DNA of 64,000 bases. Origin: Oscillospiraceae bacterium (lineage in GTDB: Bacteria; Bacillota; Clostridia; Oscillospirales; Acutalibacteraceae). Of the stretch, positions 26,537-35,756 are shown piece after piece (the stretch's first letter is position 1; every line of letters begins with the position of its first letter). Made by a program: the position numbers and the translations under genes. The stretch covers positions 830,124 through 894,123 of the forward strand of contig CP107220.1 of the NCBI GenBank assembly GCA_025757685.1, in the 5' to 3' direction. The notes below the pieces were generated by a model. That model was not told the DNA's origin and made no database searches. It saw only the letters and a program-made list of their open reading frames with translations.

Positions 26537-26645
26537 AGAATTTGATCTAAACAGAAAACAGCATATAAACGCCTTATCCACAGGAAAAACGCTTTTCCAT
26601 TTGAAAGGTCAGTCGGTGGCAGAAGATTCATACTCAAAAAAGAAA

Positions 26646-26684
26646 ATCGCAAAAGGCACCGATGTGGTACCTTTTGCGATTTTC
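26646..26684 (+). terminator. Intrinsic terminator after the EIIC-like gene
   Basis: 15-bp stem ATCGCAAAAGGCACC / GGTACCTTTTGCGAT with one mismatch, followed by TTT. Confidence 0.65.
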
Positions 26685-26704: not shown

Positions 26705-26733
26705 TTGCATTTTTCTTTTGAATTTGCTATAAT
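26705..26733 (+). promoter_or_regulatory. Junction promoter at attL (host -35, -10 inside the repeat)
   Basis: TTGCAT, a 17-nt spacer, then TGc-TATAAT at 26728-26733, reading into the prophage left end. Confidence 0.35.
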
Positions 26734-26750
26734 TATACAAAATTAATATT
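26725..26750. repeat. Left 26-bp direct repeat (attL core)
   Basis: TGCTATAATTATACAAAATTAATATT, identical to 33722-33747. Confidence 0.9.
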
Positions 26751-26760
26751 CTGCCCTCAT

Positions 26761-26798
26761 AAAATGCACAAAAGGGGAGAGCCTTGCGGCTCTGCCCC
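26761..26798 (-). terminator. Minus-strand intrinsic terminator
   Basis: On the minus strand the sequence reads GGGGcAGAGCC-gcaa-GGCTCTCCCC followed by TTTTGTGCATTTT. It lies 18 nt after the stop of the 27-codon ORF. Confidence 0.6.
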
Positions 26799-26816
26799 TC
26801 GTGTGTCAGTTGGTCG

Positions 26817-26900
26817 TTATCGGAATAGGATTTCAAACTTCCAGCTGATCTTTTTGATTGCCCTGCCTGCCAGCAGGGCTTTTATTATTGCCCGGAACAC
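26817..26900 (-). CDS. Candidate 27-aa basic amphipathic peptide
   Basis: GTG start 8 nt after a perfect AAGGAGG. The peptide is (M)FRAIIKALLAGRAIKKISWKFEILFR, and the ORF is followed by its own terminator. Confidence 0.3.
   Translation of the reverse strand: MFRAIIKALLAGRAIKKISWKFEILFR
26860..26889 (+). terminator. Plus-strand intrinsic terminator
   Basis: GCCCTGC-ctgcca-GCAGGGC followed by TTTTATTATT. No T-run follows it on the other strand. Confidence 0.6.
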
Positions 26901-27100
26901 TCTTTTCACCTCCTTGCAGTCCCAGGTAGCGAACTTGAAATTGGCAAGCGTGCGTGCGCTGTCGCTCGTCGCTTGCATAGTCCGTTGGAAGTAGGCCGGG
27001 TGCGGCAAGTCAAGGGAGAAAAGCAAAAAGTCTGCAACAAGGCATAAGGAAGAGTTTTTGCGTACCCTTTACTTGTCGTACCAGGTCTGCTATATAACAC

Positions 27101-27131
27101 AAAAGCACCCCCTCCTGGGGGTGCTTTTTTT
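27101..27131. terminator. Bidirectional intrinsic terminator
   Basis: AAAA-GCACCCCC-tcct-GGGGGTGC-TTTTTTT. Confidence 0.75.
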
Positions 27132-27143
27132 ATTATTCGGTTG

Positions 27144-27209
27144 TTATTTTAATCGTGCGTAGCAAAATGCAGCTATTAGCATTGATATAAAAATTGCTAA
27201 AGCCTTCAT
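27144..27209 (-). CDS. Candidate 21-aa hydrophobic peptide downstream of the XRE gene
   Basis: A GGAAG RBS directly follows the XRE stop codon. The peptide is MKALAIFISMLIAAFCYARLK. The bidirectional terminator follows. Confidence 0.4.
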   Translation of the reverse strand: MKALAIFISMLIAAFCYARLK

Positions 27210-27222
27210 TATTCACTTCCTT

Positions 27223-27414
27223 TCACTGTTTTCTCATATACCTGATGATTTCATCATCTGGTATCCCTAATACGGATATTGCTTTTTTTATAGTCTCTAA
27301 TGTGGTCTTGTCCTCGTCTTTCTCTATTCGTTGGTACTGTCTTGCTGAAATGCCTATCATTTCTGCCGTCTGTTCTTGTGTGTATCCTTTGTTTTGTCTG
27401 TATTCCTTTAGCAT
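27223..27414 (-). CDS. XRE-family helix-turn-helix transcriptional regulator (phage repressor-like)
   Basis: MLKEYRQNKGYTQEQTAEMIGISARQYQRIE is a typical HTH_XRE N-terminus. A GGTGA RBS lies 5 nt before the ATG at 27414. The longer GTG start at 27465 lacks an RBS. Confidence 0.8.
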   Translation of the reverse strand: MLKEYRQNKGYTQEQTAEMIGISARQYQRIEKDEDKTTLETIKKAISVLGIPDDEIIRYMRKQ

Positions 27415-27458
27415 TTTAATCACCGTATATATTCTCTCATATTGATTTAATGTGCACC

Positions 27459-27547
27459 ACGACACTGTATGTCGTTTATTTTGAATTTTCTATTGACATT
27501 TGATGTCGTGTCTGTTAATAATGAATTGTAACGACACGATGTGTCGT
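27459..27547. promoter_or_regulatory. Divergent control region with three ACGACA/TGTCGT operator-like sites and a forward promoter
   Basis: ACGACA-N5-TGTCGT lies at 27459-27475. A TGTCGT half-site at 27504-27509 lies inside the promoter spacer. A perfect ACGACAC-GAT-GTGTCGT lies at 27531-27547. The promoter is TTGACA (27493-27498), a 17-nt spacer, then TAATAA (27516-27521). Confidence 0.55.
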
Positions 27548-27891
27548 ACTGCTGGAGTGATCCAGTACATGGCCGCCTCCGGGGAAGCCCCTATCTTCCC
27601 CGGGTGTTCGGCTTAGGAGGTGGTTTTATCCTTAGTCAGTATGATATAGAAACTGTAAAGGCGTTGCGTGATAGGGAGTGTTACCGTCTTGCACTTGATA
27701 TGTGCATTGACTTGTATAGTGACCTTTCGGTTACGCATGAAGTGGCTTTTAAGTTTCTGAGTGATAATGGCTTGCTTACTCATTGTTATAGGGACTTTGA
27801 GTTAGTACAGTTACAAGATAATGCCGAAAAGTGGCAATCAATTCTTAATTCATTCGATTTTGGAGGTTGTAAAAATGGTAGCAACGATTAA
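27541..27891 (+). CDS. Hypothetical phage protein (start uncertain)
   Basis: The open frame runs from a GTG inside the operator palindrome. The first 75 nt or so are GC-rich hairpins. The only strong RBS (AGGAGG, 27615-27620) precedes an in-frame ATC at 27628. Confidence 0.4.
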   Translation: MSYCWSDPVHGRLRGSPYLPRVFGLGGGFILSQYDIETVKALRDRECYRLALDMCIDLYSDLSVTHEVAFKFLSDNGLLTHCYRDFELVQLQDNAEKWQSILNSFDFGGCKNGSND

Positions 27892-28096
27892 AGGACAGTT
27901 CCTGGAGCAGGGTACATTTAACCGAAAGACCGGCGAAACGGTCGCGTATAGTGAGGTTTTGTGTGAGGATAATACGGTGGTGCAAATCAACGACTATATC
28001 CCGCCTGCCGGTACAAAGAAGTTTGATCCGGTCAATATCCGGGTAAAAATTCATTCAACAAAATTCGGCTTGCTGATCCGTAACGCGGATAAGTAA
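27875..28096 (+). CDS. Small phage protein, positional candidate for an ssDNA-binding (gV-like) protein
   Basis: 73 aa with a GGAGG RBS 7 nt upstream. It is soluble and beta-rich-looking and sits early in the operon. The function is inferred only from size and position. Confidence 0.45.
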   Translation: MVATIKGQFLEQGTFNRKTGETVAYSEVLCEDNTVVQINDYIPPAGTKKFDPVNIRVKIHSTKFGLLIRNADK

Positions 28097-28117
28097 TATA
28101 CCACCATAGTAAAGGAA

Positions 28118-29266
28118 GTGTCAGCAGTGAAACAGAAAGTAACCCCTTTCCTCTCCGTCCTGCTGGCACTTTCTTTTCTTATGCCTGCCGCTCTGTTTGC
28201 AAAGCCGATAGAAGCCCAGGCGGCACAATTTACTGCTAGTCCTACTTATGTCCGTGTAAGTGATGATAACGCATATAATAGTAAAACTTCGACTTGGACT
28301 TTTGGTGGGGACGGTAATAATAATAATCCTATTCCTGTTACGGATATTACATGGGGACGTCAACAAAACTGCGCTATGGTATCTACGATTGCGTTTTGTG
28401 GCACGACTTCTAAAAAGGTAGATGCGGGCGATACTATTAATGTTAAAGCCCAAATTTCCCTTTATGATTATGATGATGCTGGGTACAATATGTACTTTTG
28501 TATTTTCAATTCTGCGGGTAAACAGCTGATTACTCCGCGGCTGATGGATAAGTCCGGGTCTCGTAACTTCAAGCTATCTGTGAAGATTGCTAATGATGTT
28601 GAAGGGTATTTTGGCTTTATATCTGGAAAACTGACTTATGATTCATCAAGTGGAAGTTCTCATGTATTTACTGCTCGTATTATTAATTGGAATGTAGAAT
28701 GTGAGCCTGGTGAAGTAGGCTTTTGGAACGCAGTAAAAGAAGCCCTTACCAATGTGCTTACTTGGCTTAAAGAAATTCGTGATAAGATTGTAAATGGTTT
28801 TAATGATCTTGGTAAATTGATTTCTAATCAGTTTTCCAATCTTGTTAAAAATGTACAGTCTATGATTGATAGTGTCAATAAGTGGCTGTCAGACACCTTG
28901 GATAATATCAAGCAGTTTATGTCCAATGTAGGCAAGTGGTTTACAAACCTTGGTAATTCTATATCCGGCTTTTTTGAAAAGCTGTGGAATAGGATATGGT
29001 GGGGTAATGAGAACGGAGAGAGTGAGTATGTAAAGCCGACGATCAGCAATAAGTTGCTTGATATTCTCGCCACTCTCCAGGATTACCAAGAGAAGCTAAA
29101 ATCTACTATTGACACTATCGGCTCCGCTGCCAGTGATGTAGCAAACTATATCTCTGCTGGTACTTCCTTTGTCAATGGTGTTGTGGGTGTAACCGGTGCC
29201 GGATTTACTGCACTCATTGTCTTTGGTATCGTCTTTGTCCTGGTGCGAAAGGTGGTAGGTCGGTGA
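28118..29266 (+). CDS. Secreted, C-terminally anchored phage protein (pIII-like adsorption/minor coat candidate)
   Basis: Signal peptide ending AQA, an N-terminal domain, repeated amphipathic helices, and the C-terminal TM GFTALIVFGIVFVLVRKVVGR. Confidence 0.55.
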   Translation: MSAVKQKVTPFLSVLLALSFLMPAALFAKPIEAQAAQFTASPTYVRVSDDNAYNSKTSTWTFGGDGNNNNPIPVTDITWGRQQNCAMVSTIAFCGTTSKKVDAGDTINVKAQISLYDYDDAGYNMYFCIFNSAGKQLITPRLMDKSGSRNFKLSVKIANDVEGYFGFISGKLTYDSSSGSSHVFTARIINWNVECEPGEVGFWNAVKEALTNVLTWLKEIRDKIVNGFNDLGKLISNQFSNLVKNVQSMIDSVNKWLSDTLDNIKQFMSNVGKWFTNLGNSISGFFEKLWNRIWWGNENGESEYVKPTISNKLLDILATLQDYQEKLKSTIDTIGSAASDVANYISAGTSFVNGVVGVTGAGFTALIVFGIVFVLVRKVVGR

Positions 29267-29493
29267 AGTACATTATTGATTATATTATCGTCTTTACGGA
29301 CTGGCTTATTACCGCCATTAAAGATATTTTACTGCTCTTGTGGAACGTAATATTGATCGTGGTGGAAGCAGGGAAGTTTTTAATCTCCGTAGTTACTTCA
29401 CTTCCCGCTTTGGTTACTGTGCCTGCTGTGGCTTTGGTCGTTGCTTGTGTTCTGTATAAAGTCCTCGGTCGAGAGGGGGGAGAAGCAAGCTAA
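29263..29493 (+). CDS. Two-TM small phage membrane protein (pVI-like candidate)
   Basis: GTGA overlap with the upstream gene. 76 aa with two hydrophobic helices. Confidence 0.55.
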   Translation: MKYIIDYIIVFTDWLITAIKDILLLLWNVILIVVEAGKFLISVVTSLPALVTVPAVALVVACVLYKVLGREGGEAS

Positions 29494-29636
29494 TGGAAGA
29501 TCTTGCAAGCCTGTTTGGTCAAGGCTTTTCTATACTGTGGAATGCAAAACTTCTTGGTATGCCTATTATGTTTTGGTTTGTTCTTGTAGCCATATTTGGT
29601 ATTATCGGTAGTTTTTTGAAAGGTAAGAAAGAATGA
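29493..29636 (+). CDS. 47-aa coat-like single-TM protein
   Basis: Not in the ORF track. TAATG overlap upstream and ATGA overlap downstream. The peptide is MEDLASLFGQGFSILWNAKLLGMPIMFWFVLVAIFGIIGSFLKGKKE. Confidence 0.55.
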   Translation: MEDLASLFGQGFSILWNAKLLGMPIMFWFVLVAIFGIIGSFLKGKKE

Positions 29637-30157
29637 AAAAGAAGTTAGTTTTTATCGTATCTCTGCTGCTTGCACTGTCTATACCGTCAGTAGCCTATGC
29701 AGAGGAATACGGAAATACATATCCGGCTTATGTGCCGGTGTCGGGAGGTGCGTATATTGAGGTTCAGTGTGCCCTTGGGCGTGGGACGCTTGTCTTTGCG
29801 CGTGAGTACAAAGACGGTTATTTTGGCTTTTACGGCAGTGGCTATAGCCCTGCTAATATATCGCGTAGTACCATCAATGGCACCTACTATACGGCAGCTG
29901 GTGCAAAATATAATGCAAGGGTAAATGCAATGGGTGAAGCCCAGTATTATCGTGAGACAAGTACACGGTATGAATGGACAAACCTTAATGTCTCTAAAAT
30001 CTATAATACTAATGTGAAGTTTGAGGACTTTAAAGATGATCGTGCTAATATCATTGATTTGTTTTCTTATGATCCTGTTACTTATCTCTGGCTGGCTTGT
30101 ACTGTCGTTATAATCCTGCTGCTGATGTATATTGCTTGGAGGAGTTCTTGTGATTGA
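29633..30157 (+). CDS. Secreted, C-terminally anchored phage protein
   Basis: Signal peptide ending VAYA, Tyr/Gly-rich ectodomain, C-terminal TM. Confidence 0.55.
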   Translation: MKKKLVFIVSLLLALSIPSVAYAEEYGNTYPAYVPVSGGAYIEVQCALGRGTLVFAREYKDGYFGFYGSGYSPANISRSTINGTYYTAAGAKYNARVNAMGEAQYYRETSTRYEWTNLNVSKIYNTNVKFEDFKDDRANIIDLFSYDPVTYLWLACTVVIILLLMYIAWRSSCD

Positions 30158-30299
30158 GTATTTTACTAAATTGATAGGGGAGTGTCCCAGCTATCTTTAT
30201 GGCGTGGTGTATGTACTCTCTTTCTTCTTGGTCGTTTTTGGCCTGTATGTCATATTGACATTGATAAAAGTGTTTTTCAGTCCTTTTTTTAAGGGTTAG
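30150..30299 (+). CDS. 49-aa single-TM phage protein
   Basis: Not in the ORF track. The GTG start lies 5 nt after GGAGGAG and overlaps the upstream stop. Confidence 0.5.
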   Translation: MIEYFTKLIGECPSYLYGVVYVLSFFLVVFGLYVILTLIKVFFSPFFKG

Positions 30300-30313
30300 T
30301 GAGGTGATAATAT

Positions 30314-30499
30314 ATGCCCTTGTCTGTGATTGCTATGGAAGTAACTTCCGCTGCTGACGCTATTACGGAGTTTACTTCTGTTTTTACCAAAGCCTGGACT
30401 TTTTTGACCGGAAATTGGTACTTTCTCGCTTTAATTTGCGTGCCCTTGGGTGCTTTGCTTCTTTCTACAATTCTGGGCTTTATTCGGAGTAGAACCTAA
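30314..30499 (+). CDS. 61-aa coat-like protein (paralogue family with 31382 and 31689)
   Basis: GAGGTGA RBS. It starts MP, has an amphipathic N-terminus and one TM helix, and ends in the basic tail IRSRT. Confidence 0.6.
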   Translation: MPLSVIAMEVTSAADAITEFTSVFTKAWTFLTGNWYFLALICVPLGALLLSTILGFIRSRT

Positions 30500-30669
30500 T
30501 GGTTGCCGAATGTTTTAACAAAGCCATTGAATTTATAACAATAACAGCTGAAGCTTGGTTTTCTCTTGTTATTGATGAGTGGCCGTTGTTCCCTTGGTTC
30601 CTGCTTGGCTTTGCTGGGTTCTTGCTTTTGGTGGTACTTCGTTTCGTACTCCGAAAGGTGTATAGATAA
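30499..30669 (+). CDS. 56-aa coat-like single-TM protein
   Basis: Not in the ORF track. TAATG overlaps at both ends, with the basic tail LRFVLRKVYR. Confidence 0.5.
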   Translation: MVAECFNKAIEFITITAEAWFSLVIDEWPLFPWFLLGFAGFLLLVVLRFVLRKVYR

Positions 30670-31340
30670 TGTTATATAACACATTTGATGATACTATTAT
30701 GGAGCCTATCGGCTGGCTGTTTGAAGTGCTTAGTGGTGTGCTATATTTGCCGTTCCAATTCAATGAAGATACGATAATTGCCGGACTGATCGTCATTACA
30801 CCGATCGCAGCCGGTGCCTTGTGTTTGATCATTGATTGGGTCTTTGATGTCCGGGATGAGTTCAGTAACTTCCACCGCTTGGAAGATTATACTTCTTCAT
30901 TTCGGCAGCACTTCCAGCGCTATGGCCGACCTCGGCAGAGTAGGGTAGACCTCAAAGCATTAAAGGAATACCAAGACTATAAGCATAATCAAGCTATGGA
31001 GTTGCAAGAAAAGAAGCACGCATATACTCATGACTATCTGCAACAGCAGATGGCGCATACAAAAATCAAAAACGCTATGCAAACGGAGCAGTCTACGCGC
31101 TTCTCCCAAAACATAGATAAGTTGAAAAACTATCAAGAATACAAGTTTGGTAAACAGCAGGAAGCACTAAATTTCTTCCAGTCGGTGGCTGCTCAGTATC
31201 AAAATCATAGTAGTTCTCCGGCTGCGCTTCACGGCGGTTCTGCTTTGCCTGCCGTTCCTGCTTCGTACAAACCGAAAAGGGTCAATGGCGCTCCTGTTCC
31301 TCCCGGTAACCACCCTGAGTTGGATATTGAGGTGGATTGA
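30669..31340 (+). CDS. Phage membrane protein with a Gln/Lys-rich cytoplasmic or extracellular domain
   Basis: 223 aa with N-terminal TM helices and then a polar Q/K/Y-rich region. I recognise no motif. Confidence 0.5.
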   Translation: MLYNTFDDTIMEPIGWLFEVLSGVLYLPFQFNEDTIIAGLIVITPIAAGALCLIIDWVFDVRDEFSNFHRLEDYTSSFRQHFQRYGRPRQSRVDLKALKEYQDYKHNQAMELQEKKHAYTHDYLQQQMAHTKIKNAMQTEQSTRFSQNIDKLKNYQEYKFGKQQEALNFFQSVAAQYQNHSSSPAALHGGSALPAVPASYKPKRVNGAPVPPGNHPELDIEVD

Positions 31341-31381
31341 GCACATGACATACAGAGACTATAAAGAAAGGAGAAAATGCA

Positions 31382-31624
31382 ATGCCTGTTATTCTTGCTG
31401 ATACTGGTGCCGCAGGTGGCGTGAGTCTTGCTACTCTTGATACGCTGATCACTGGCATTAAATCGGCTATTGCTTGGATCTTTAGCTTGTTTGCTCGGAT
31501 CGTTAGCACGATCTCTACAAACGATTTGCTGCTGTATCCTGTGCTGCTGTGTATGGTGATTGCAGCTGTTACGCTTGCAATCCGCATTGTTCGTAAGTTT
31601 GGTATGAAGTCCCGCCGGTCTTAA
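31382..31624 (+). CDS. 80-aa major-coat-like protein, copy 1
   Basis: AAAGGAG RBS. The central VSTISTNDLLLYPVLL segment is followed by a TM helix and the basic tail RKFGMKSRRS. Confidence 0.6.
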   Translation: MPVILADTGAAGGVSLATLDTLITGIKSAIAWIFSLFARIVSTISTNDLLLYPVLLCMVIAAVTLAIRIVRKFGMKSRRS

Positions 31625-31688
31625 CCCGTGAGGGCGGCTTGTCCGCCTCCGGGTTGGACCGTATCAGTATTTAGAAAGGAGTTAATAT

Positions 31689-31931
31689 ATGCCTGTTTCT
31701 GCTGCATTGACCGCAGCGATTACTACAAGTGACATTTTCAGCAGTATGACTACTGTCTTTGAGCTGCTGATGGATCAGTTTACCACGACTGTATCTACGA
31801 TCACAAGTAATCCTTTGCTGTTCGTGCCTGTCCTCTGCGGATTTGGCGGTGGCCTAATTATGGCCGGCGTTAAAGTCGTTCGTAAGCTGGGCGTGCGCGG
31901 TATGGGCGGTCGGCGCCGCCGCCGCGGTTAA
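31689..31931 (+). CDS. 80-aa major-coat-like protein, copy 2
   Basis: AAGGAG RBS. VSTITSNPLLFVPVL is followed by a TM helix and the tail RKLGVRGMGGRRRRRG. It is a paralogue of 31382-31624. Confidence 0.6.
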   Translation: MPVSAALTAAITTSDIFSSMTTVFELLMDQFTTTVSTITSNPLLFVPVLCGFGGGLIMAGVKVVRKLGVRGMGGRRRRRG

Positions 31932-31941
31932 ATCTTAAATA

Positions 31942-31972
31942 TAGGCGTGGTAGGGGCACGCCTTATTTTTTT
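31942..31972 (+). terminator. Intrinsic terminator directly after the coat-like genes
   Basis: AGGCGTG-gtagggg-CACGCCT followed by TATTTTTTTT. Confidence 0.7.
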
Positions 31973-31987
31973 TGGAGTGATTAACTT

Positions 31988-32143
31988 ATGGAATTTATTA
32001 AAACGCTGTTTCAGCTGTTCAATTACCTTTTTCAATCCGCTTTTGTATTTTCCCCTTTTATACTTCTTTTTACTTCCTTGGGTGTGCTTCTCGTCCTTTC
32101 TGCGGCTCTACAATCATTTTTTAGGGGGTACTACAAGAAGTGA
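31988..32143 (+). CDS. 51-aa single-TM protein overlapping the pI-like gene start
   Basis: Not in the ORF track as such. A GGAGTGA RBS lies 8 nt upstream. The peptide is MEFIKTLFQLFNYLFQSAFVFSPFILLFTSLGVLLVLSAALQSFFRGYYKK. Its stop overlaps the GTG at 32140. Confidence 0.5.
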   Translation: MEFIKTLFQLFNYLFQSAFVFSPFILLFTSLGVLLVLSAALQSFFRGYYKK

Positions 32144-32847
32144 ATTTGTTTAATAAGAAAATCGCCAAACATAGCTTAGAGCCTTATTGTGTGATCGTTA
32201 CAGGCGATAGGGGAGTAGGTAAGTCTACTTTGTTCGCTCTTATTGTAGAAGCAGCTAAGAAAGAGGGCTTGGATGTATTCTGTCAATTCCCTTATAAAGA
32301 TTGTTACCAAATCCCACTTACATATATCACTAAGAAAGGCTATACCTACTTGGATATAGATAAACAGTGGCTATACTCTCACGACTTTAACCACTGTGTA
32401 CTCTTAATTGATGAAGCTAAAACCGTTTGGCCTGCTCGTGGCTATGCTGATTGGACAATGCAAGATGAACAGTTCTTTAACTTCCTCCGTAAAAATGATA
32501 TTCATTTATTCGCTGCTACACAAGCGTATGATGGTCTTGACCTTAATGTAAAGCGTGCTGCTGATGAAGTGTGGTATCTCACCCAGTTCTTTTGGCATTT
32601 TACACATATCGAATCAAGCCATACAACACTCTGTAAGGTCGCAGATAAACAAACCGAGGTGCAAGGCCGTATGTTTAAAAAAGGTATGAGAAAAGTAGCC
32701 TGGGATGTCTGTGAAGTACCTTTGAAAAACTTCTTGTTTTGGCGTAAGAGTTATTATGGTAGCTTCATTTCCAACTTTGTATTTGGAGAAAAGCCAAAGC
32801 CGCAGCTGGAAAGCTGGAACGATACGCCAGTGTTCAAATCTCTTTAA
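32140..32847 (+). CDS. pI/Zot-like phage morphogenesis ATPase
   Basis: Walker A is VTGDRGVGKST and Walker B is VLLIDEAKTVW. This block and FFNFLRKNDIHLFAATQ align by eye with the Ff pI segments VTGKLGAGKT, LLVLDECGTWF and IIDWFLHARKLGWDIIFLVQ. Confidence 0.7.
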   Translation: MNLFNKKIAKHSLEPYCVIVTGDRGVGKSTLFALIVEAAKKEGLDVFCQFPYKDCYQIPLTYITKKGYTYLDIDKQWLYSHDFNHCVLLIDEAKTVWPARGYADWTMQDEQFFNFLRKNDIHLFAATQAYDGLDLNVKRAADEVWYLTQFFWHFTHIESSHTTLCKVADKQTEVQGRMFKKGMRKVAWDVCEVPLKNFLFWRKSYYGSFISNFVFGEKPKPQLESWNDTPVFKSL

Positions 32848-32849
32848 GT

Positions 32850-32883
32850 CTTATAATATAGTAAGATTATACTAGATTATAAG
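32850..32883. other. 34-nt AT-rich imperfect hairpin between the pI-like and rep genes
   Basis: CTTATAAT-a-TAGTA-agatta-TACTA-g-ATTATAAG. Confidence 0.5.
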
Positions 32884-32943
32884 ATGTCTATTTTATTTCT
32901 CTTGTCTATTGCTCAAATAAGAACCAAATAGGGGGTGTTTTTT

Positions 32944-33699
32944 ATGGAGCGGAAGGTACCTAAACGCAGGATAGAAAAGATAGTTATAAGCGGTAATGTG
33001 ATAGAATATTACAGGTATCAGAAGCCCCTAAATGTAGAACCGCGTGAGCATGATATAGAAAAGAATAGAGAGACCTCGGAGGGAAAAAGAGATCGGAATT
33101 TATACCGTGCCCGTGCTGATCTACGCCGGGCGATATGGTGCAATACAACAGATTATACTAAGTTTGTGACACTTACATATAAAGATACAGTTTTAGATCA
33201 AGATCAAGTTTTATATGATTGGAAGCAATTTATTAAAAATTTAAGACGAAAAGGATATAAAGTCCCTTATGTTTACATTACGGAGCACCAAAAGAAAAGG
33301 GGACTAAAAGAAGGCAATGAAGGGTGCTTGCATATTCACGCTGTGCTTTTCACAGATGACTTTATCAGCGCTGATGTGATTAACGCCTGCTGGGGTAAAG
33401 GTCGTACAGAGATTAAAGCACTTCGGTCAATCAAAAACCTTGGCGCTTATGTCTGCAAATATCTAACAAAAGAAGAGTTTGACCTTTACCATAAACATAG
33501 CTACCACTTGTCGCGCGGTTTGAAAAAGCCGGAGGTGCTGACAACTGATGGCTATATAGGTCAGTGGCGTGATATGTACTCGAATATTCACGAAAATACA
33601 AAAGTAATTTATAGCAACGCAACGGAATTTGTTTACGCCGGAGCAGATGGCAGTATTCAATCAAATACCATTCTTTATGAGCAGGGTATATTTAAGTAG
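32944..33699 (+). CDS. HUH-superfamily rolling-circle replication initiator
   Basis: Motif 1 is FVTLTY, motif 2 is CLHIHAVLF (HUH) and motif 3 is GAYVCKYLTKE (catalytic Tyr). An AGGGGG RBS precedes the ATG at 32944. Confidence 0.7.
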   Translation: MERKVPKRRIEKIVISGNVIEYYRYQKPLNVEPREHDIEKNRETSEGKRDRNLYRARADLRRAIWCNTTDYTKFVTLTYKDTVLDQDQVLYDWKQFIKNLRRKGYKVPYVYITEHQKKRGLKEGNEGCLHIHAVLFTDDFISADVINACWGKGRTEIKALRSIKNLGAYVCKYLTKEEFDLYHKHSYHLSRGLKKPEVLTTDGYIGQWRDMYSNIHENTKVIYSNATEFVYAGADGSIQSNTILYEQGIFK

Positions 33700-33701
33700 G
33701 G

Positions 33702-33730
33702 TTGACTATAGGTGAAAATAATGCTATAAT
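33702..33730 (+). promoter_or_regulatory. Near-consensus promoter spanning the phage end and the repeat, reading toward the xer gene
   Basis: TTGACT (33702-33707), a 17-nt spacer ending in TGc, then TATAAT (33725-33730). Confidence 0.5.
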
Positions 33731-33747
33731 TATACAAAATTAATATT
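33722..33747. repeat. Right 26-bp direct repeat (attR core)
   Basis: Identical to 26725-26750. Confidence 0.9.
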
Positions 33748-33756
33748 TTGTATAAT
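33729..33756. other. dif-like 28-bp recombination-site candidate
   Basis: ATTATACAAAA-TTAATA-TTTTGTATAAT, with perfectly inverted 11-bp arms around a 6-bp centre, 17 bp upstream of the recombinase start. Confidence 0.5.
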
Positions 33757-33773
33757 TCAGGGGAGTTGATACA

Positions 33774-34763
33774 GTGAAAAAAGCGGAATTTGGGCAATTA
33801 CCCATGCCCGTACAGGACTATCTGTTGTATTTGGAGGCCATCAAAGGTCATAGCGAATTATCGGTGATCGAATATGCGTCGGATTTGCGCACCTTCTTTC
33901 GCTACCTTGCCAAGGAAAAAAATCTGTATCCGCCTGACACGCCGGACGATCAAATGGATCTACGACAAATCAATATGGACTTTATCAAGACCATTACACT
34001 GAGCGACGCCTACCAGTTCTTAATCTACTGCAAGAACCAACGCGGCAACGCGGAAGCCACCCGTGCGCGGCGTGTGATCGCCATACGGCGCTTTTTTATC
34101 TATTTAACGGACAACCGGCACTTGCTGGAGGAAAATCCAATGAAAGTGCTGGACGCGCCGAAAACAAAAAAAGCCCTTCCAAAGTACATGACCTTGGAAG
34201 AAGCACGCCATTTATTATCCGTTGTAGACGGCAAACACAAAGAGCGGGATTACGCCATTTTGACCTTACTTCTGAACTGCGGTATGCGACTGAGCGAGTT
34301 GGTGTCCATTGATTATAATGATATAAAATCAAACGATACATTGGTGATCACCGGTAAAGGCAACAAGGAGCGCACCGTGTACTTAAACGATGCTTGCAAA
34401 ACCGCCGTTACGGCCTATATGCGGGTGCGGCCGCACGACGGTGTAAAGGACAAAGCTTTATTTCTAAGCAGCCGCAACCAGCGGATCAGCCCCAAGACGG
34501 TACAACACATGGTGTACGCTTATTTGGACAAGGCCGGGCTGGGCGATCGAGGCTTGTCCGTGCATAAGCTGCGCCATACGGCAGCCACACTGATGTACCA
34601 AAATGGACATGTGGATCTGCTGCTGCTTAAAGAGATTCTGGGCCATGAAAACCTGGGTACTACGGAAATCTATACCCACATCAGCGACGACGCAGCCAAG
34701 GCCGCCATTGAGGCCAATCCCCTTGCCGATCTTAATGCGCCTAAATCGAGATCACAGAACTGA
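33774..34763 (+). CDS. xerD: XerC/XerD-family site-specific tyrosine recombinase (host-encoded)
   Basis: N-terminal SAM-like domain (YLLYLEAIKGHSELSVIEY). The catalytic residues are GMRLSEL (Arg), HKLRHTAAT (H-x-x-R) and LGHENLGTTEIYTH (His, Tyr). The gene lies outside the prophage repeats, and the spoIIM neighbour matches Bacillus ripX. I am less certain of the gene symbol than of the family. Confidence 0.8.
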   Translation: MKKAEFGQLPMPVQDYLLYLEAIKGHSELSVIEYASDLRTFFRYLAKEKNLYPPDTPDDQMDLRQINMDFIKTITLSDAYQFLIYCKNQRGNAEATRARRVIAIRRFFIYLTDNRHLLEENPMKVLDAPKTKKALPKYMTLEEARHLLSVVDGKHKERDYAILTLLLNCGMRLSELVSIDYNDIKSNDTLVITGKGNKERTVYLNDACKTAVTAYMRVRPHDGVKDKALFLSSRNQRISPKTVQHMVYAYLDKAGLGDRGLSVHKLRHTAATLMYQNGHVDLLLLKEILGHENLGTTEIYTHISDDAAKAAIEANPLADLNAPKSRSQN

Positions 34764-35373
34764 ACAAACTGGTCAGCCCTGCATTACATAAGGCGGCCAA
34801 CGCCACGAAAGCGGCGGAAATCAGATATTTTTTTAAATAATCCCGCACCTGAATTTCAGCGGGGGACTCCCCTGTTGCATCGTCTCGCTTGACGGACAGG
34901 TGAAAGATGGACTTGGACATATCGGTGCTGATTTTAATGGTGAGCATGACCACCGTCAGCAAAATAGAGGCCGCCGGAATCACCATCAGCACGCAAAACA
35001 GCACACCTTTCAGGCGAAAAGTCATATAATAGTAGCACACCTGCATACCAAAAGCAAAGCCGCAAGTCATGGGCACAAAATGAATTAGCGGAAAGCCGAT
35101 CATACAAAAGCCCAAAAAGACCGTTACCAAAAATATACTGAAATACAAACAAAAATCATTGAGAAACAGCTGTAAAAAGCGGTTCTCCCCTACTCTCAGC
35201 AGTGCGTTGACTGTGTCGGAGCGAATTTGACGGTACAGTACGCTGCCCAACGCTAACCCGCAGGTGTAAAATACCAGGGAATAGATGTAAGTTCTATGGG
35301 TCTCCCAGCGAAATGCGCGCAGCTCATCCGAAAACGCCGCCGCCAGGTCCCGCTTCTCCCGAGGCTCGCTCAT
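34741..35373 (-). CDS. spoIIM: Stage II sporulation protein M
   Basis: 210 aa with about 5 TM segments and the typical SpoIIM layout. The start was moved to the ATG at 35373, which overlaps the upstream stop (ATGA). Confidence 0.65.
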   Translation of the reverse strand: MSEPREKRDLAAAFSDELRAFRWETHRTYIYSLVFYTCGLALGSVLYRQIRSDTVNALLRVGENRFLQLFLNDFCLYFSIFLVTVFLGFCMIGFPLIHFVPMTCGFAFGMQVCYYYMTFRLKGVLFCVLMVIPAASILLTVVMLTIKISTDMSKSIFHLSVKRDDATGESPAEIQVRDYLKKYLISAAFVALAALCNAGLTSLFSSVISI

Positions 35374-35756
35374 AAGTGCACCCGCTTGTTGCTGACAACT
35401 GCCAGCGCAGCGCACACCGGCATACCCAGCAGGCGCAGTACCAATAAACCAGCGCCGGAAGGTGCCATACAGTAGTGTATCACCATTAGGACCATTGCAG
35501 GCACAATGGCAGCCAATGCCAATGGCAAGCGGCTGTTTTTCACCCCGCGAAGCGCCCATTTTGCAATGAGAAAGGCACAGAGAAAGTCGATCGCCGCACA
35601 GATATACGCGATCAGCTTAAAGTCCAGATCCAGTTTGTACACCACCAGTGCCCCTAAAGCGCAGCAAACACCAAAGCAGCACACGGTGGCCGCCGTAACA
35701 CGAAGCAGATAAAGCAGCAATACGGTTTTTGTTTTGCCTACCTGAATTTTTGGCAT
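35370..35756 (-). CDS. Hypothetical multi-TM membrane protein
   Basis: A GAGGGTGA RBS precedes the ATG at 35756. It has four hydrophobic helices and is translationally coupled to spoIIM. Confidence 0.5.
   Translation of the reverse strand: MPKIQVGKTKTVLLLYLLRVTAATVCCFGVCCALGALVVYKLDLDFKLIAYICAAIDFLCAFLIAKWALRGVKNSRLPLALAAIVPAMVLMVIHYCMAPSGAGLLVLRLLGMPVCAALAVVSNKRVHL

Follow-up and report, generated by a model that had tools for sequence, protein, structure and literature searches.

A probable dif site with a symmetric core and an adjoining AGGGGAG motif beside a divergent Xer-family gene in Oscillospirales, and its apparent use by integrase-less inovirus-like phages

Knowledge of dif sites and of their polar motifs comes mostly from Proteobacteria, Bacilli, streptococci and a few archaea. 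In Helicobacter and Campylobacter, difH is more palindromic than the dif of XerCD systems and lies near the xerH gene. A single recombinase, XerH, acts there on its cognate dif (PMC3325230, PMC5241119). The XerS/difSL system of streptococci and lactococci likewise relies on one recombinase, with a polar motif and FtsK as guides (PMC1914069, PMC2965235), and in archaea dif is an 11-6-11 inverted repeat which is bound by one protein and at which short polar sequences flip (PMC5357621). A large-scale prediction of dif sites covered few Clostridia: its table contained no Ruminococcus, Eubacterium or Faecalibacterium, and it failed for two Clostridium species (PMC3025954). The present study concerns a stretch of 64,000 nucleotides from an Oscillospiraceae bacterium (contig CP107220.1, positions 830,124 to 894,123; hereafter the window), in which the initial annotation had described a dif-type site next to a Xer-family recombinase gene as the attachment site of a filamentous-type phage that lacks an integrase. 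This reading agreed with every computational test that was run. The palindrome, together with an AGGGGAG motif that abuts it, is very probably the chromosome dimer-resolution site (dif) at the terminus, both in this bacterium and in many other Oscillospirales, located beside a divergent Xer gene.

The complete core (33728-33757) reads AATTATACAAAA-TTAATA-TTTTGTATAATT and is a perfect 12-6-12 inverted repeat, to which no strand can be assigned. Direct reading agreed with the palindrome first noted at 33729-33756, and the arms are complementary over the full 12 bp. This is the geometry of dif (inverted arms of about 11 bp around a centre of 6-8 bp), and it was found likewise in 55 sites. The 28-mer (33729-33756) occurs once in the window, even when up to three mismatches are allowed, with 0.00 copies expected from shuffled sequence. 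Its end is separated by 17 nt from the GTG start (33774) of the recombinase gene, as had been stated, and its right arm matches the B. subtilis-type XerD arm TTATGTAAACT at the 8 of 11 positions counted before; the likeness applies equally to both arms of the palindrome. A dif carrying this XerD arm is entered for Bacillus pumilus in the supplement of PMC3025954. One nucleotide past the right arm lies AGGGGAG (33759-33765, plus strand), which points away from the core and in this genome doubles as the Shine-Dalgarno sequence of the recombinase gene.

Conservation of the site was followed in 80 loci, one genome per species, from Acutalibacteraceae, Ruminococcus, Anaeromassilibacillus, Caproicibacter and others, with recombinase orthologues that were 50-77% identical (individual loci are denoted below by L and a number). 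A 12-6-12 site of the same type was present within 1.5 kb upstream of the orthologous gene in 52 of the 80 loci. The gap between site and gene was 16-170 nt in most of these (full range 16-1,262 nt), which is the gene adjacency known from systems of the XerS and XerH type. Among the 55 sites, 41 were perfect 12/12 palindromes. The inner AAAA/TTTT of the arms was invariant and the 6-bp centre varied. Changes in the arms comprised 32 symmetric double changes, for example ACTTATACAAAA/TTTTGTATAAGT, AATTGCGCAAAA/TTTTGCGCAATT and AACTTCGCAAAA/TTTTGCGAAGTT, and 17 changes in one arm, eight of which affected the outermost base. Conserved symmetric arms around a variable centre are the pattern to be expected if the core is bound on both arms by the same protein.

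Two properties of the site had been overlooked in the initial annotation. The conserved unit is larger than the palindrome and consists of one arm, exactly one base and then AGGGGAG(TT); when the centre is oriented by this flank, it shows the loose consensus T-N-A-A-T-R. In addition, the unit of palindrome and flank was found to face either way with respect to the recombinase gene and to lie as far as 1.26 kb from it. At inverted or distant sites there was mostly no open reading frame (ORF) after the AGGGGAG flank. Occurrence in both orientations, variable distance and a flank mostly without a following ORF do not fit an RNA element or an operator of fixed position, and the site probably works at the DNA level and autonomously. 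Insertion junctions aside, each 20-kb locus contained one full site.

Cumulative GC skew, which had been named at the outset as a check on a terminus at this place, reached its maximum in the window at 33887; plus-strand skew is above zero as far as about 34 kb and below zero from about 45 kb onward. The skew was also positive to the left and negative to the right of the site in 28 of the 36 related loci with enough flanking sequence, and reversed in one of the 36. Since the left flanks are not syntenic between species, this pattern is not that of one inherited gene arrangement. In 1.2 Mb of pooled flanks, AGGGGAG was the most strand-polarised of all 7-mers, with 186 copies directed toward the site and 15 away from it. 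The shorter word AGGGGA occurs in the window 17 times on the plus and once on the minus strand to the left of the site, and once on the plus and 14 times on the minus strand to the right, where the single plus-strand copy is the flank itself at 33759. Pooled over 53 loci, the left side had 161:13 copies and the right side 8:175 (Fisher p = 7e-74). The strand preference flipped within the kilobase that bears the site, and the density of the motif rose toward it. Location at the terminus and convergence of a polar motif, both expected of a dif, were thus found together. No canonical XerCD-type dif with up to four arm mismatches was found in any locus; the best candidates had five or six mismatches and lay at scattered positions.

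It was considered whether AGGGGAG is merely a Shine-Dalgarno sequence. This explanation was rejected, since most loci with inverted (class-2) sites or long gaps had no ORF following the motif, and 156 of the 186 leading-strand copies lay outside ribosome-binding-site contexts (156:11 toward and away, with only 30 of the 186 in such a context). The Shine-Dalgarno-like GGAGG showed a bias of only 0.67. AGGGGAG is a candidate for the word that serves this clade as FtsK-orienting polar sequence (KOPS) or SpoIIIE recognition sequence (SRS). To our knowledge, a polar-motif copy fixed 1 nt from a dif arm has not been described for other systems. The motif resembles KOPS of E. coli (GGGNAGGG), SRS of B. 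subtilis and the architecture imparting sequences (AIMS; PMC5357621) in that it is G-rich, has more than 90% of its copies on the leading strand close to the terminus, becomes denser toward dif and flips there, but it differs from them in the word itself, the 7-mer AGGGGAG, and in the copy that is fixed beside the arm.

In the window the site is occupied by an integrated inovirus-like element, whose body spans 26751-33721 (plus strand, GC 41.8%) and whose genome, with one copy of the core, amounts to 6,997 bp. The GC content of the insert is 0.418, compared with 0.519 and 0.530 in its flanks, and GC at third codon positions (GC3) is 0.38-0.39 in its Rep and Zot genes, compared with 0.58-0.68 in neighbouring host genes. 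A 26-bp direct repeat, TGCTATAATTATACAAAATTAATATT (repeat family D4), is present at 26725-26750 (attL core) and 33722-33747 (attR core), both on the plus strand and 6,997 bp apart. Besides 6 nt of flanking DNA it takes in the left arm and the centre but only 2 nt of the right arm, in agreement with the earlier description. In attR, which is the complete core at 33728-33757, the left arm is phage-derived, the centre is shared and the right arm belongs to the host. The hybrid attL (26731-26760, no strand) reads AATTATACAAAA-TTAATA-TTCTGCCCTCAT and joins the left arm of the host and the shared centre to a degenerate right arm of the phage, in which 5 of 12 positions match; the altered right arm had been seen correctly.

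An empty site, which was to be sought in relatives according to the initial annotation, was recovered in a prophage-free contig of the same species (L001), whose recombinase is 98% identical to the window protein. When the 6,997 bp were removed, the window was colinear with L001 over 904 bp at 96.8% identity; judged from this alignment, the insertion is precise and recent. An exact look-up of the Rep protein (from its ATG start) returned 19 public contigs, and in all 10 that were listed the element was integrated at the same place. An IMG/VR contig (L084) carries at this place a relative of the prophage with 93% identity. Two alleles of the 6-bp centre exist in this one species, TTAATA in the window (33740-33745) and TTATTA in the empty site of L001 (6993-7022), and L084 carries TTATTA, the allele of the empty L001 site, at both of its junctions (1092 and 8020). 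Each lysogen bears at both junctions the centre allele of its own strain, which is the outcome to be expected of recombination within an identical 6-bp overlap. The matching of alleles suggests a requirement for homology in the centre and, possibly, an arms race over its sequence.

The genes of the element are those of an inovirus-like phage without an integrase. A rolling-circle Rep of the HUH type (32935-33699, plus strand; start placed at 32944 by the gene caller) matched Pfam PF23343 REP_ORF2-G2P with 65.2 bits (cut-off 27.8) and PHROG 3584 at 2.5e-26, and was at most 30% identical to the Reps of known single-stranded DNA phages. Upstream of it, a Zot/pI-like P-loop morphogenesis ATPase (32140-32847, plus strand) scored 21.1 bits against Pfam Zot (cut-off 20.3) and 4.9e-5 against the Zot-like PHROG 197. 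Several small hydrophobic ORFs of 47-80 aa are also present. From its genes alone the element thus shows the marks of inovirus-like phages (Tubulavirales), with a marginal Zot, a G2P-type Rep, small hydrophobic ORFs and a genome within 5-10 kb. No recombinase or transposase domain was detected in the five ORFs of at least 170 aa that were scanned in the insert, and the earlier statement that the prophage encodes no integrase held for all five. The prophage contains three copies of AGGGGAG (26773-26779, 30176 and 32209), all on the plus strand, which is the permissive orientation of its own replichore. One of them lies 12 nt past the degenerate attL arm, beside a small hairpin (26778-26793).

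At least five further elements with Zot or Rep genes use the same site, with Reps of three families among them. The element in L049 (5.6 kb, GC 33% versus 40%) encodes a helix-turn-helix (HTH) protein, Zot (29 bits) and a RepB-type Rep; it is bounded by a full and a half site, and its repeat consists of the flank, one arm and the centre. In L027, a 6.6-kb element with an HTH protein and a RepB-type Rep has the full site at its distal end and the half site beside the gene. Two IMG/VR contigs, L115 with a G2P-type Rep and L137 with Zot and Rep_trans, adjoin a full site and the xer gene. The fifth, L196 (IMGVR_UViG_3300007802_000086), is a contig of 5,191 bp encoding Zot (33.8 bits) and an HTH regulator; its 47-bp terminal overlap indicates a circular genome of 5.1 kb. 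The site on L196, AATTATACAAAA-TAAATG-ATATCTAAAAAG, consists of one good arm, the centre and a degenerate arm, and is therefore of the attP type that was deduced for the window phage. L196 and the window prophage have the same gene order, and hosts with the centre TAAATG include L014, L015, L018, L050 and L062. The scan of IMG/VR for one arm plus centre gave mostly chance matches in AT-rich viral DNA, and only L115, L127, L137 and L196 were informative.

No homologues of the window phage proteins were found in the 80 genome loci, and the other inserted elements are accordingly different phages. Because elements with three unrelated Rep families have one target in common, and the same limits of crossover at the central region, the integrating enzyme would be the host recombinase and not Rep. 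The elements have the properties of integrative mobile elements that exploit Xer (IMEXs), in that they lack an integrase of their own, their attP mimics part of dif, and dif is re-formed at one junction; the last point is based on the junctions in the window, the empty site and the attP-type site on circular L196. The filamentous phages CTX-phi, VGJ-phi and TLC-phi of Vibrio also lack an integrase and integrate at dif by means of host Xer (PMC4246890, PMC6744903), with one good and one poor arm in attP and a functional dif re-formed on one side. They differ in using the XerC/XerD pair of Gram-negative hosts, whereas the present hosts are Gram-positive-type Clostridia. CTX-phi integrates as folded single-stranded DNA, the homology of its centre being incomplete (PMC4246890, PMC6744903). 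The centre of the window phage is identical to that of dif (6/6), so that both strand exchanges would be allowed on a double-stranded attP. The circular junction of the window phage is predicted to read GAAAATAATGCTATAATTATACAAAATTAATATTCTGCCCTCAT.

The recombinase gene (33774-34763, plus strand) encodes a Xer-family tyrosine recombinase of 329 aa with a Pfam Phage_integrase domain (129 bits) and a SAM-like N-terminal domain. With a GC3 of 0.60 it falls among the host genes and away from those of the phage, in line with the earlier description of a host-like gene outside the repeats. The residues R172, K195/K198, H264, R267, H291 and Y300 were invariant in 14 homologues; from the motifs and from what is known of E. 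coli XerD, we take them to be the RKHRHY catalytic set. The putative R-K-H-R-H-Y set and the two-domain architecture place the protein in the tyrosine recombinase superfamily, and its N-terminal domain apparently contains an insertion relative to E. coli XerD. All NCBIfam scores were below the respective cut-offs (XerC 208.6/335.2, XerA 197/220, XerD 192.9/329.6 and XerS 148/267 bits). The best match in the PDB was E. coli XerD (3.5e-31), with P. abyssi XerA at 1.7e-28 and XerH (5jjv) at 3.6e-16. By the thresholds of those families and by these comparisons, the protein is not a member of XerS, XerH, XerC, XerD or XerA. Host-like codons, synteny on the right-hand side and invariant catalytic motifs make the adjacent recombinase look competent and host-encoded.

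Several relatives possess a second, canonical XerD-like recombinase of 297 aa (TIGR02225 320 bits, against 193 for the window protein, cut-off 329.6; above the PRK00283 subfamily cut-off). In L137 (1-894), L058 (12078-12968), L068 (12070-12957), L074 (10748-11635) and L043 (11924-12811) its gene is found at about 1-2 kb from that of the 329-aa protein, and in L040 (3582-4466) about 0.8 kb upstream of it. Relatives of this paralogue are widespread in Caproiciproducens and other Oscillospirales, and it is absent from the 64-kb window. The paralogue may work on the site by itself or jointly with the adjacent protein, or it may instead have another function at the terminus; in B. subtilis, XerD also unloads SMC. 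Next to the recombinase gene in the window is a convergent, overlapping gene of the SpoIIM family (34741-35559, minus strand; Pfam SpoIIM 43.7 bits, cut-off 26.9, below the NCBIfam cut-off), which opens the conserved right-hand synteny and is followed by tgt and queA. The initial annotation had likened this arrangement to ripX/xerD of Bacillus. The Pfam match agrees with the presence of the SpoIIM gene, but orthology with xerD is doubtful: the canonical paralogue is the better ripX/xerD candidate, which weakens the synteny argument for the 329-aa gene.

Compared with described systems, the locus is closest in different respects to different ones. It shares with XerS/difSL a Firmicutes host and a recombinase gene linked to a dif-like site at the terminus (PMC1914069, PMC2965235). 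It differs in that difSL is an atypical 31-bp site (PMC5357621), whereas the window site is a perfect 12-6-12 palindrome, and in that here the KOPS-like motif abuts the site, both orientations occur and a canonical Xer paralogue coexists in relatives; the score of the window protein against XerS is also far from the cut-off (148 versus 267 bits). By analogy with XerH/difH, where a single recombinase acts on its cognate dif (PMC3325230, PMC5241119), use of the site by one enzyme may be supposed, but the window protein is much more distant from XerH than from E. coli XerD (3.6e-16 versus 3.5e-31) and comes from a different phylum. The inverted-repeat site and the polar sequences that flip at dif recall archaeal XerA/dif (PMC5357621), and XerA is the model whose own cut-off was most nearly reached (197/220); in contrast, XerA is archaeal and independent of FtsK, and the window protein remains below the family cut-off. 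The XerL/dif system of Legionella with its element LME-1 (PMC9765430) is alike in that dif was revealed by an integrated element with a dif mimic and that a modified second site affects stability. It differs in belonging to a gamma-proteobacterium, in an element that is not an inovirus and in genetic proof, the system described here being known from sequence.

The sequence itself shows how the site is built, that the insertion is precise, that the site lies at the terminus where the motif converges, that it is conserved with symmetric co-variation, and that integrase-less elements recur there. As to the mechanism, we infer which protein acts, that it does so in a homomeric mode, that FtsK is needed and in what order the strands are exchanged. 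A single kind of recombinase would bind both identical arms of dif as well as the good arm of attP, and cleavage and strand exchange would take place at the two borders of the 6-bp centre. A translocase of the FtsK/SpoIIIE type, reading the converging AGGGGAG motifs, would bring the recombinase to the site or activate it there. The attP of the window phage, as deduced from the junctions, has one perfect arm, the identical 6-bp centre and a degenerate second arm, and because of the perfect arm and identical centre the host enzyme would be able to recombine it with dif. Integration re-forms a full dif beside the gene (attR) and leaves the hybrid attL at the other end. The latter would be a poor substrate, which would hinder loss of the prophage during dimer resolution; a poor second site that protects an integrated element has been described for LME-1 and the Vibrio IMEXs (PMC9765430, PMC4246890). 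It may be speculated that the abutting AGGGGAG supplies the asymmetry which the symmetric core lacks, and since the flank points away from the core, its orientation is not that of a simple loading site. Tentatively, the locus may thus represent an undescribed dif system of the Oscillospirales, in which a symmetric core is directed by the AGGGGAG 1 nt from one arm: the motor would dock or halt on one side and activate only the recombinase pair of that arm, and the same module would be the landing pad of diverse, so far unrecognised inoviruses of Gram-positive gut bacteria.

The palindrome could be dif and yet be served not, or not only, by the 329-aa protein, an unlikely but serious alternative in which the XerD-like paralogue would act on both arms, or a XerC/XerD-like pair would share half-site specificity. 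The proximity of the 297-aa gene to the 329-aa gene in six loci and its wide occurrence in Caproiciproducens and other Oscillospirales speak for such an arrangement, as do the 8 of 11 XerD-like positions in both arms. However, it is the 329-aa gene that is linked to the site in 52 of the 80 loci, the paralogue being within 10 kb in only five of those, and perfect symmetry with 32 symmetric double changes would be hard to maintain for two different proteins. The description of the site as a single-recombinase-style dif is retained for the adjacency of the gene and the two-fold symmetry, but not for the use of a single enzyme, in view of the XerD-like paralogue in relatives. Much less probable is a role restricted to the integration of mobile elements, in which the site would be a platform that the adjacent recombinase serves as the integron integrase serves attI, with a conventional XerCD/dif elsewhere. 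Several different elements are inserted at the site, relatives possess a canonical Xer paralogue, and the view of this genome extends over 64 kb, all of which would suit a platform. Such a function would not account for the exact flip of the polar motif and GC skew at the site, seen in the window as in dozens of species; moreover, a canonical dif was not found nearby in any locus, and in most loci the site is empty, without cargo.

A role of the palindrome solely as operator, promoter element or 5'-untranslated-region hairpin of the recombinase gene, with the phage inserting by other means such as its HUH Rep, is hardly credible, even though a sigma-A promoter overlaps the outer end of the arm in the window and in other class-1 loci, so that binding would repress the gene. 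Each arm also contains TATAAT, and the palindrome would fold as a hairpin. Against these features stand the two orientations of the site and its distance of up to 1.26 kb from the gene, the inversion of class-2 sites relative to the gene, with no class-1 promoter layout to be read in their flanks, and the use of the same target with the same crossover limits by elements of three unrelated Rep families; the convergence of the polar motif would also be left unexplained. Autoregulation may well coexist with a dif function. The assignment of the palindrome as dif and phage attachment site is itself weakened by several observations. A clear site within 1.5 kb was missing from 28 of the 80 loci, among them some with short contigs, diverged arms or insertions. 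The canonical XerD-like gene near the 329-aa gene in relatives means that the acting enzyme could be the paralogue or a pair. The Zot call for the window element is marginal (21.1 versus 20.3 bits), and the circular attP of the window phage was not found in IMG/VR or JGI metagenomes, either as an exact 35-mer or as a degenerate 38-mer. Finally, uniqueness of the site and the complement of xer genes were judged within the 64 kb of the window.

The literature searched contained no account of this system, of a polar role for AGGGGAG or of phages that exploit Xer in Clostridia, and we know of no earlier clear instance of such phages in a Gram-positive-type host. For a dominant group of gut anaerobes the analysis provides a concrete dif site that can be put to the test, a recombinase candidate and, in AGGGGAG, a candidate KOPS-like word. 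A rule for finding prophages is also offered, namely one arm plus centre beside a xer gene. A polar motif abutting a fully symmetric core bears on how Xer systems order strand exchange. In practical terms, the 30-mer could serve as a site for marker excision ('Xer-cise') and as a terminus landmark in assembling and orienting metagenome-assembled genomes of these bacteria. These results, for which sequence evidence is the basis throughout, should be of interest to the fields of Xer recombination, chromosome segregation and gut phages.

Among the other genes of the prophage, an HTH_3 (Xre-type) regulator (27223-27465, minus strand; Pfam HTH_3 57.9 bits) is divergent from the structural genes and is a candidate repressor; an equivalent HTH gene occupies the same position in L049, L027 and L196. 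A secreted or membrane protein of 382 aa (28118-29266, plus strand) has an N-terminal signal-like segment and a C-terminal hydrophobic segment, and its database matches were only to low-complexity coiled coils. By its position it is a candidate adsorption or minor coat protein.

In the lysogen, a sigma-A-type promoter (33702-33730, plus strand; TTGACT-17-TGcTATAAT, 11/12 matches, TG present) leads into the site and the recombinase gene. Its -35 element is phage DNA; its -10 element belongs to the shared repeat and has 3 nt in common with the start of the left arm. The native host promoter (26705-26733, plus strand; TTGCAT-17-TGcTATAAT) is now parted from the gene by the prophage; it was read by eye, as the scanner made no call because the -35 element matches at 3/6 positions. 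Since the phage end brings a near-consensus TTGACT, the hybrid promoter is closer to consensus than the native one with TTGCAT, and since the -10 element extends over 3 nt at the outer end of the dif arm, autorepression by the recombinase is conceivable. The layout TTGACA-17-TA(T/C)AAT was seen likewise in the class-1 loci L002, L004, L005, L050 and L058. Between the native promoter and the gene of a 426-aa membrane protein upstream of it, the window contains a strong, bidirectional terminator-like hairpin of 19 pairs (26642-26684).

Partial copies of the site were also observed in the related loci. Direct copies of the half-site TTTTGTATAAT, two to four in number and at spacings of 21-36 bp, lie upstream of the xer gene in L040 (5090-5190), L044 (94-125), L055 (21-53) and L056 (255-286), and in L040 the array coexists with a full site 0.5 kb further up; these arrays might represent binding sites with an accessory or regulatory role, or be what is left of insertions. 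Half-sites in L060, L077, L080 and L083 were considered as element junctions and rejected, the intervening DNA consisting of host-sized genes at host GC. In L023 (5727-5811) the arms ACTTATACAAAA and TTTTGTATAAGT are 61 nt apart instead of 6 nt, the site having been disrupted or rearranged. Perfect lone 12-nt arms, AATTATACAAAA, occur 2-2.6 kb from the full site in L060 (7396), L077 (1869), L080 (7940) and L013 (2846); they exceed the approximately one copy expected by chance over all loci, and ordinary host genes lie in between.

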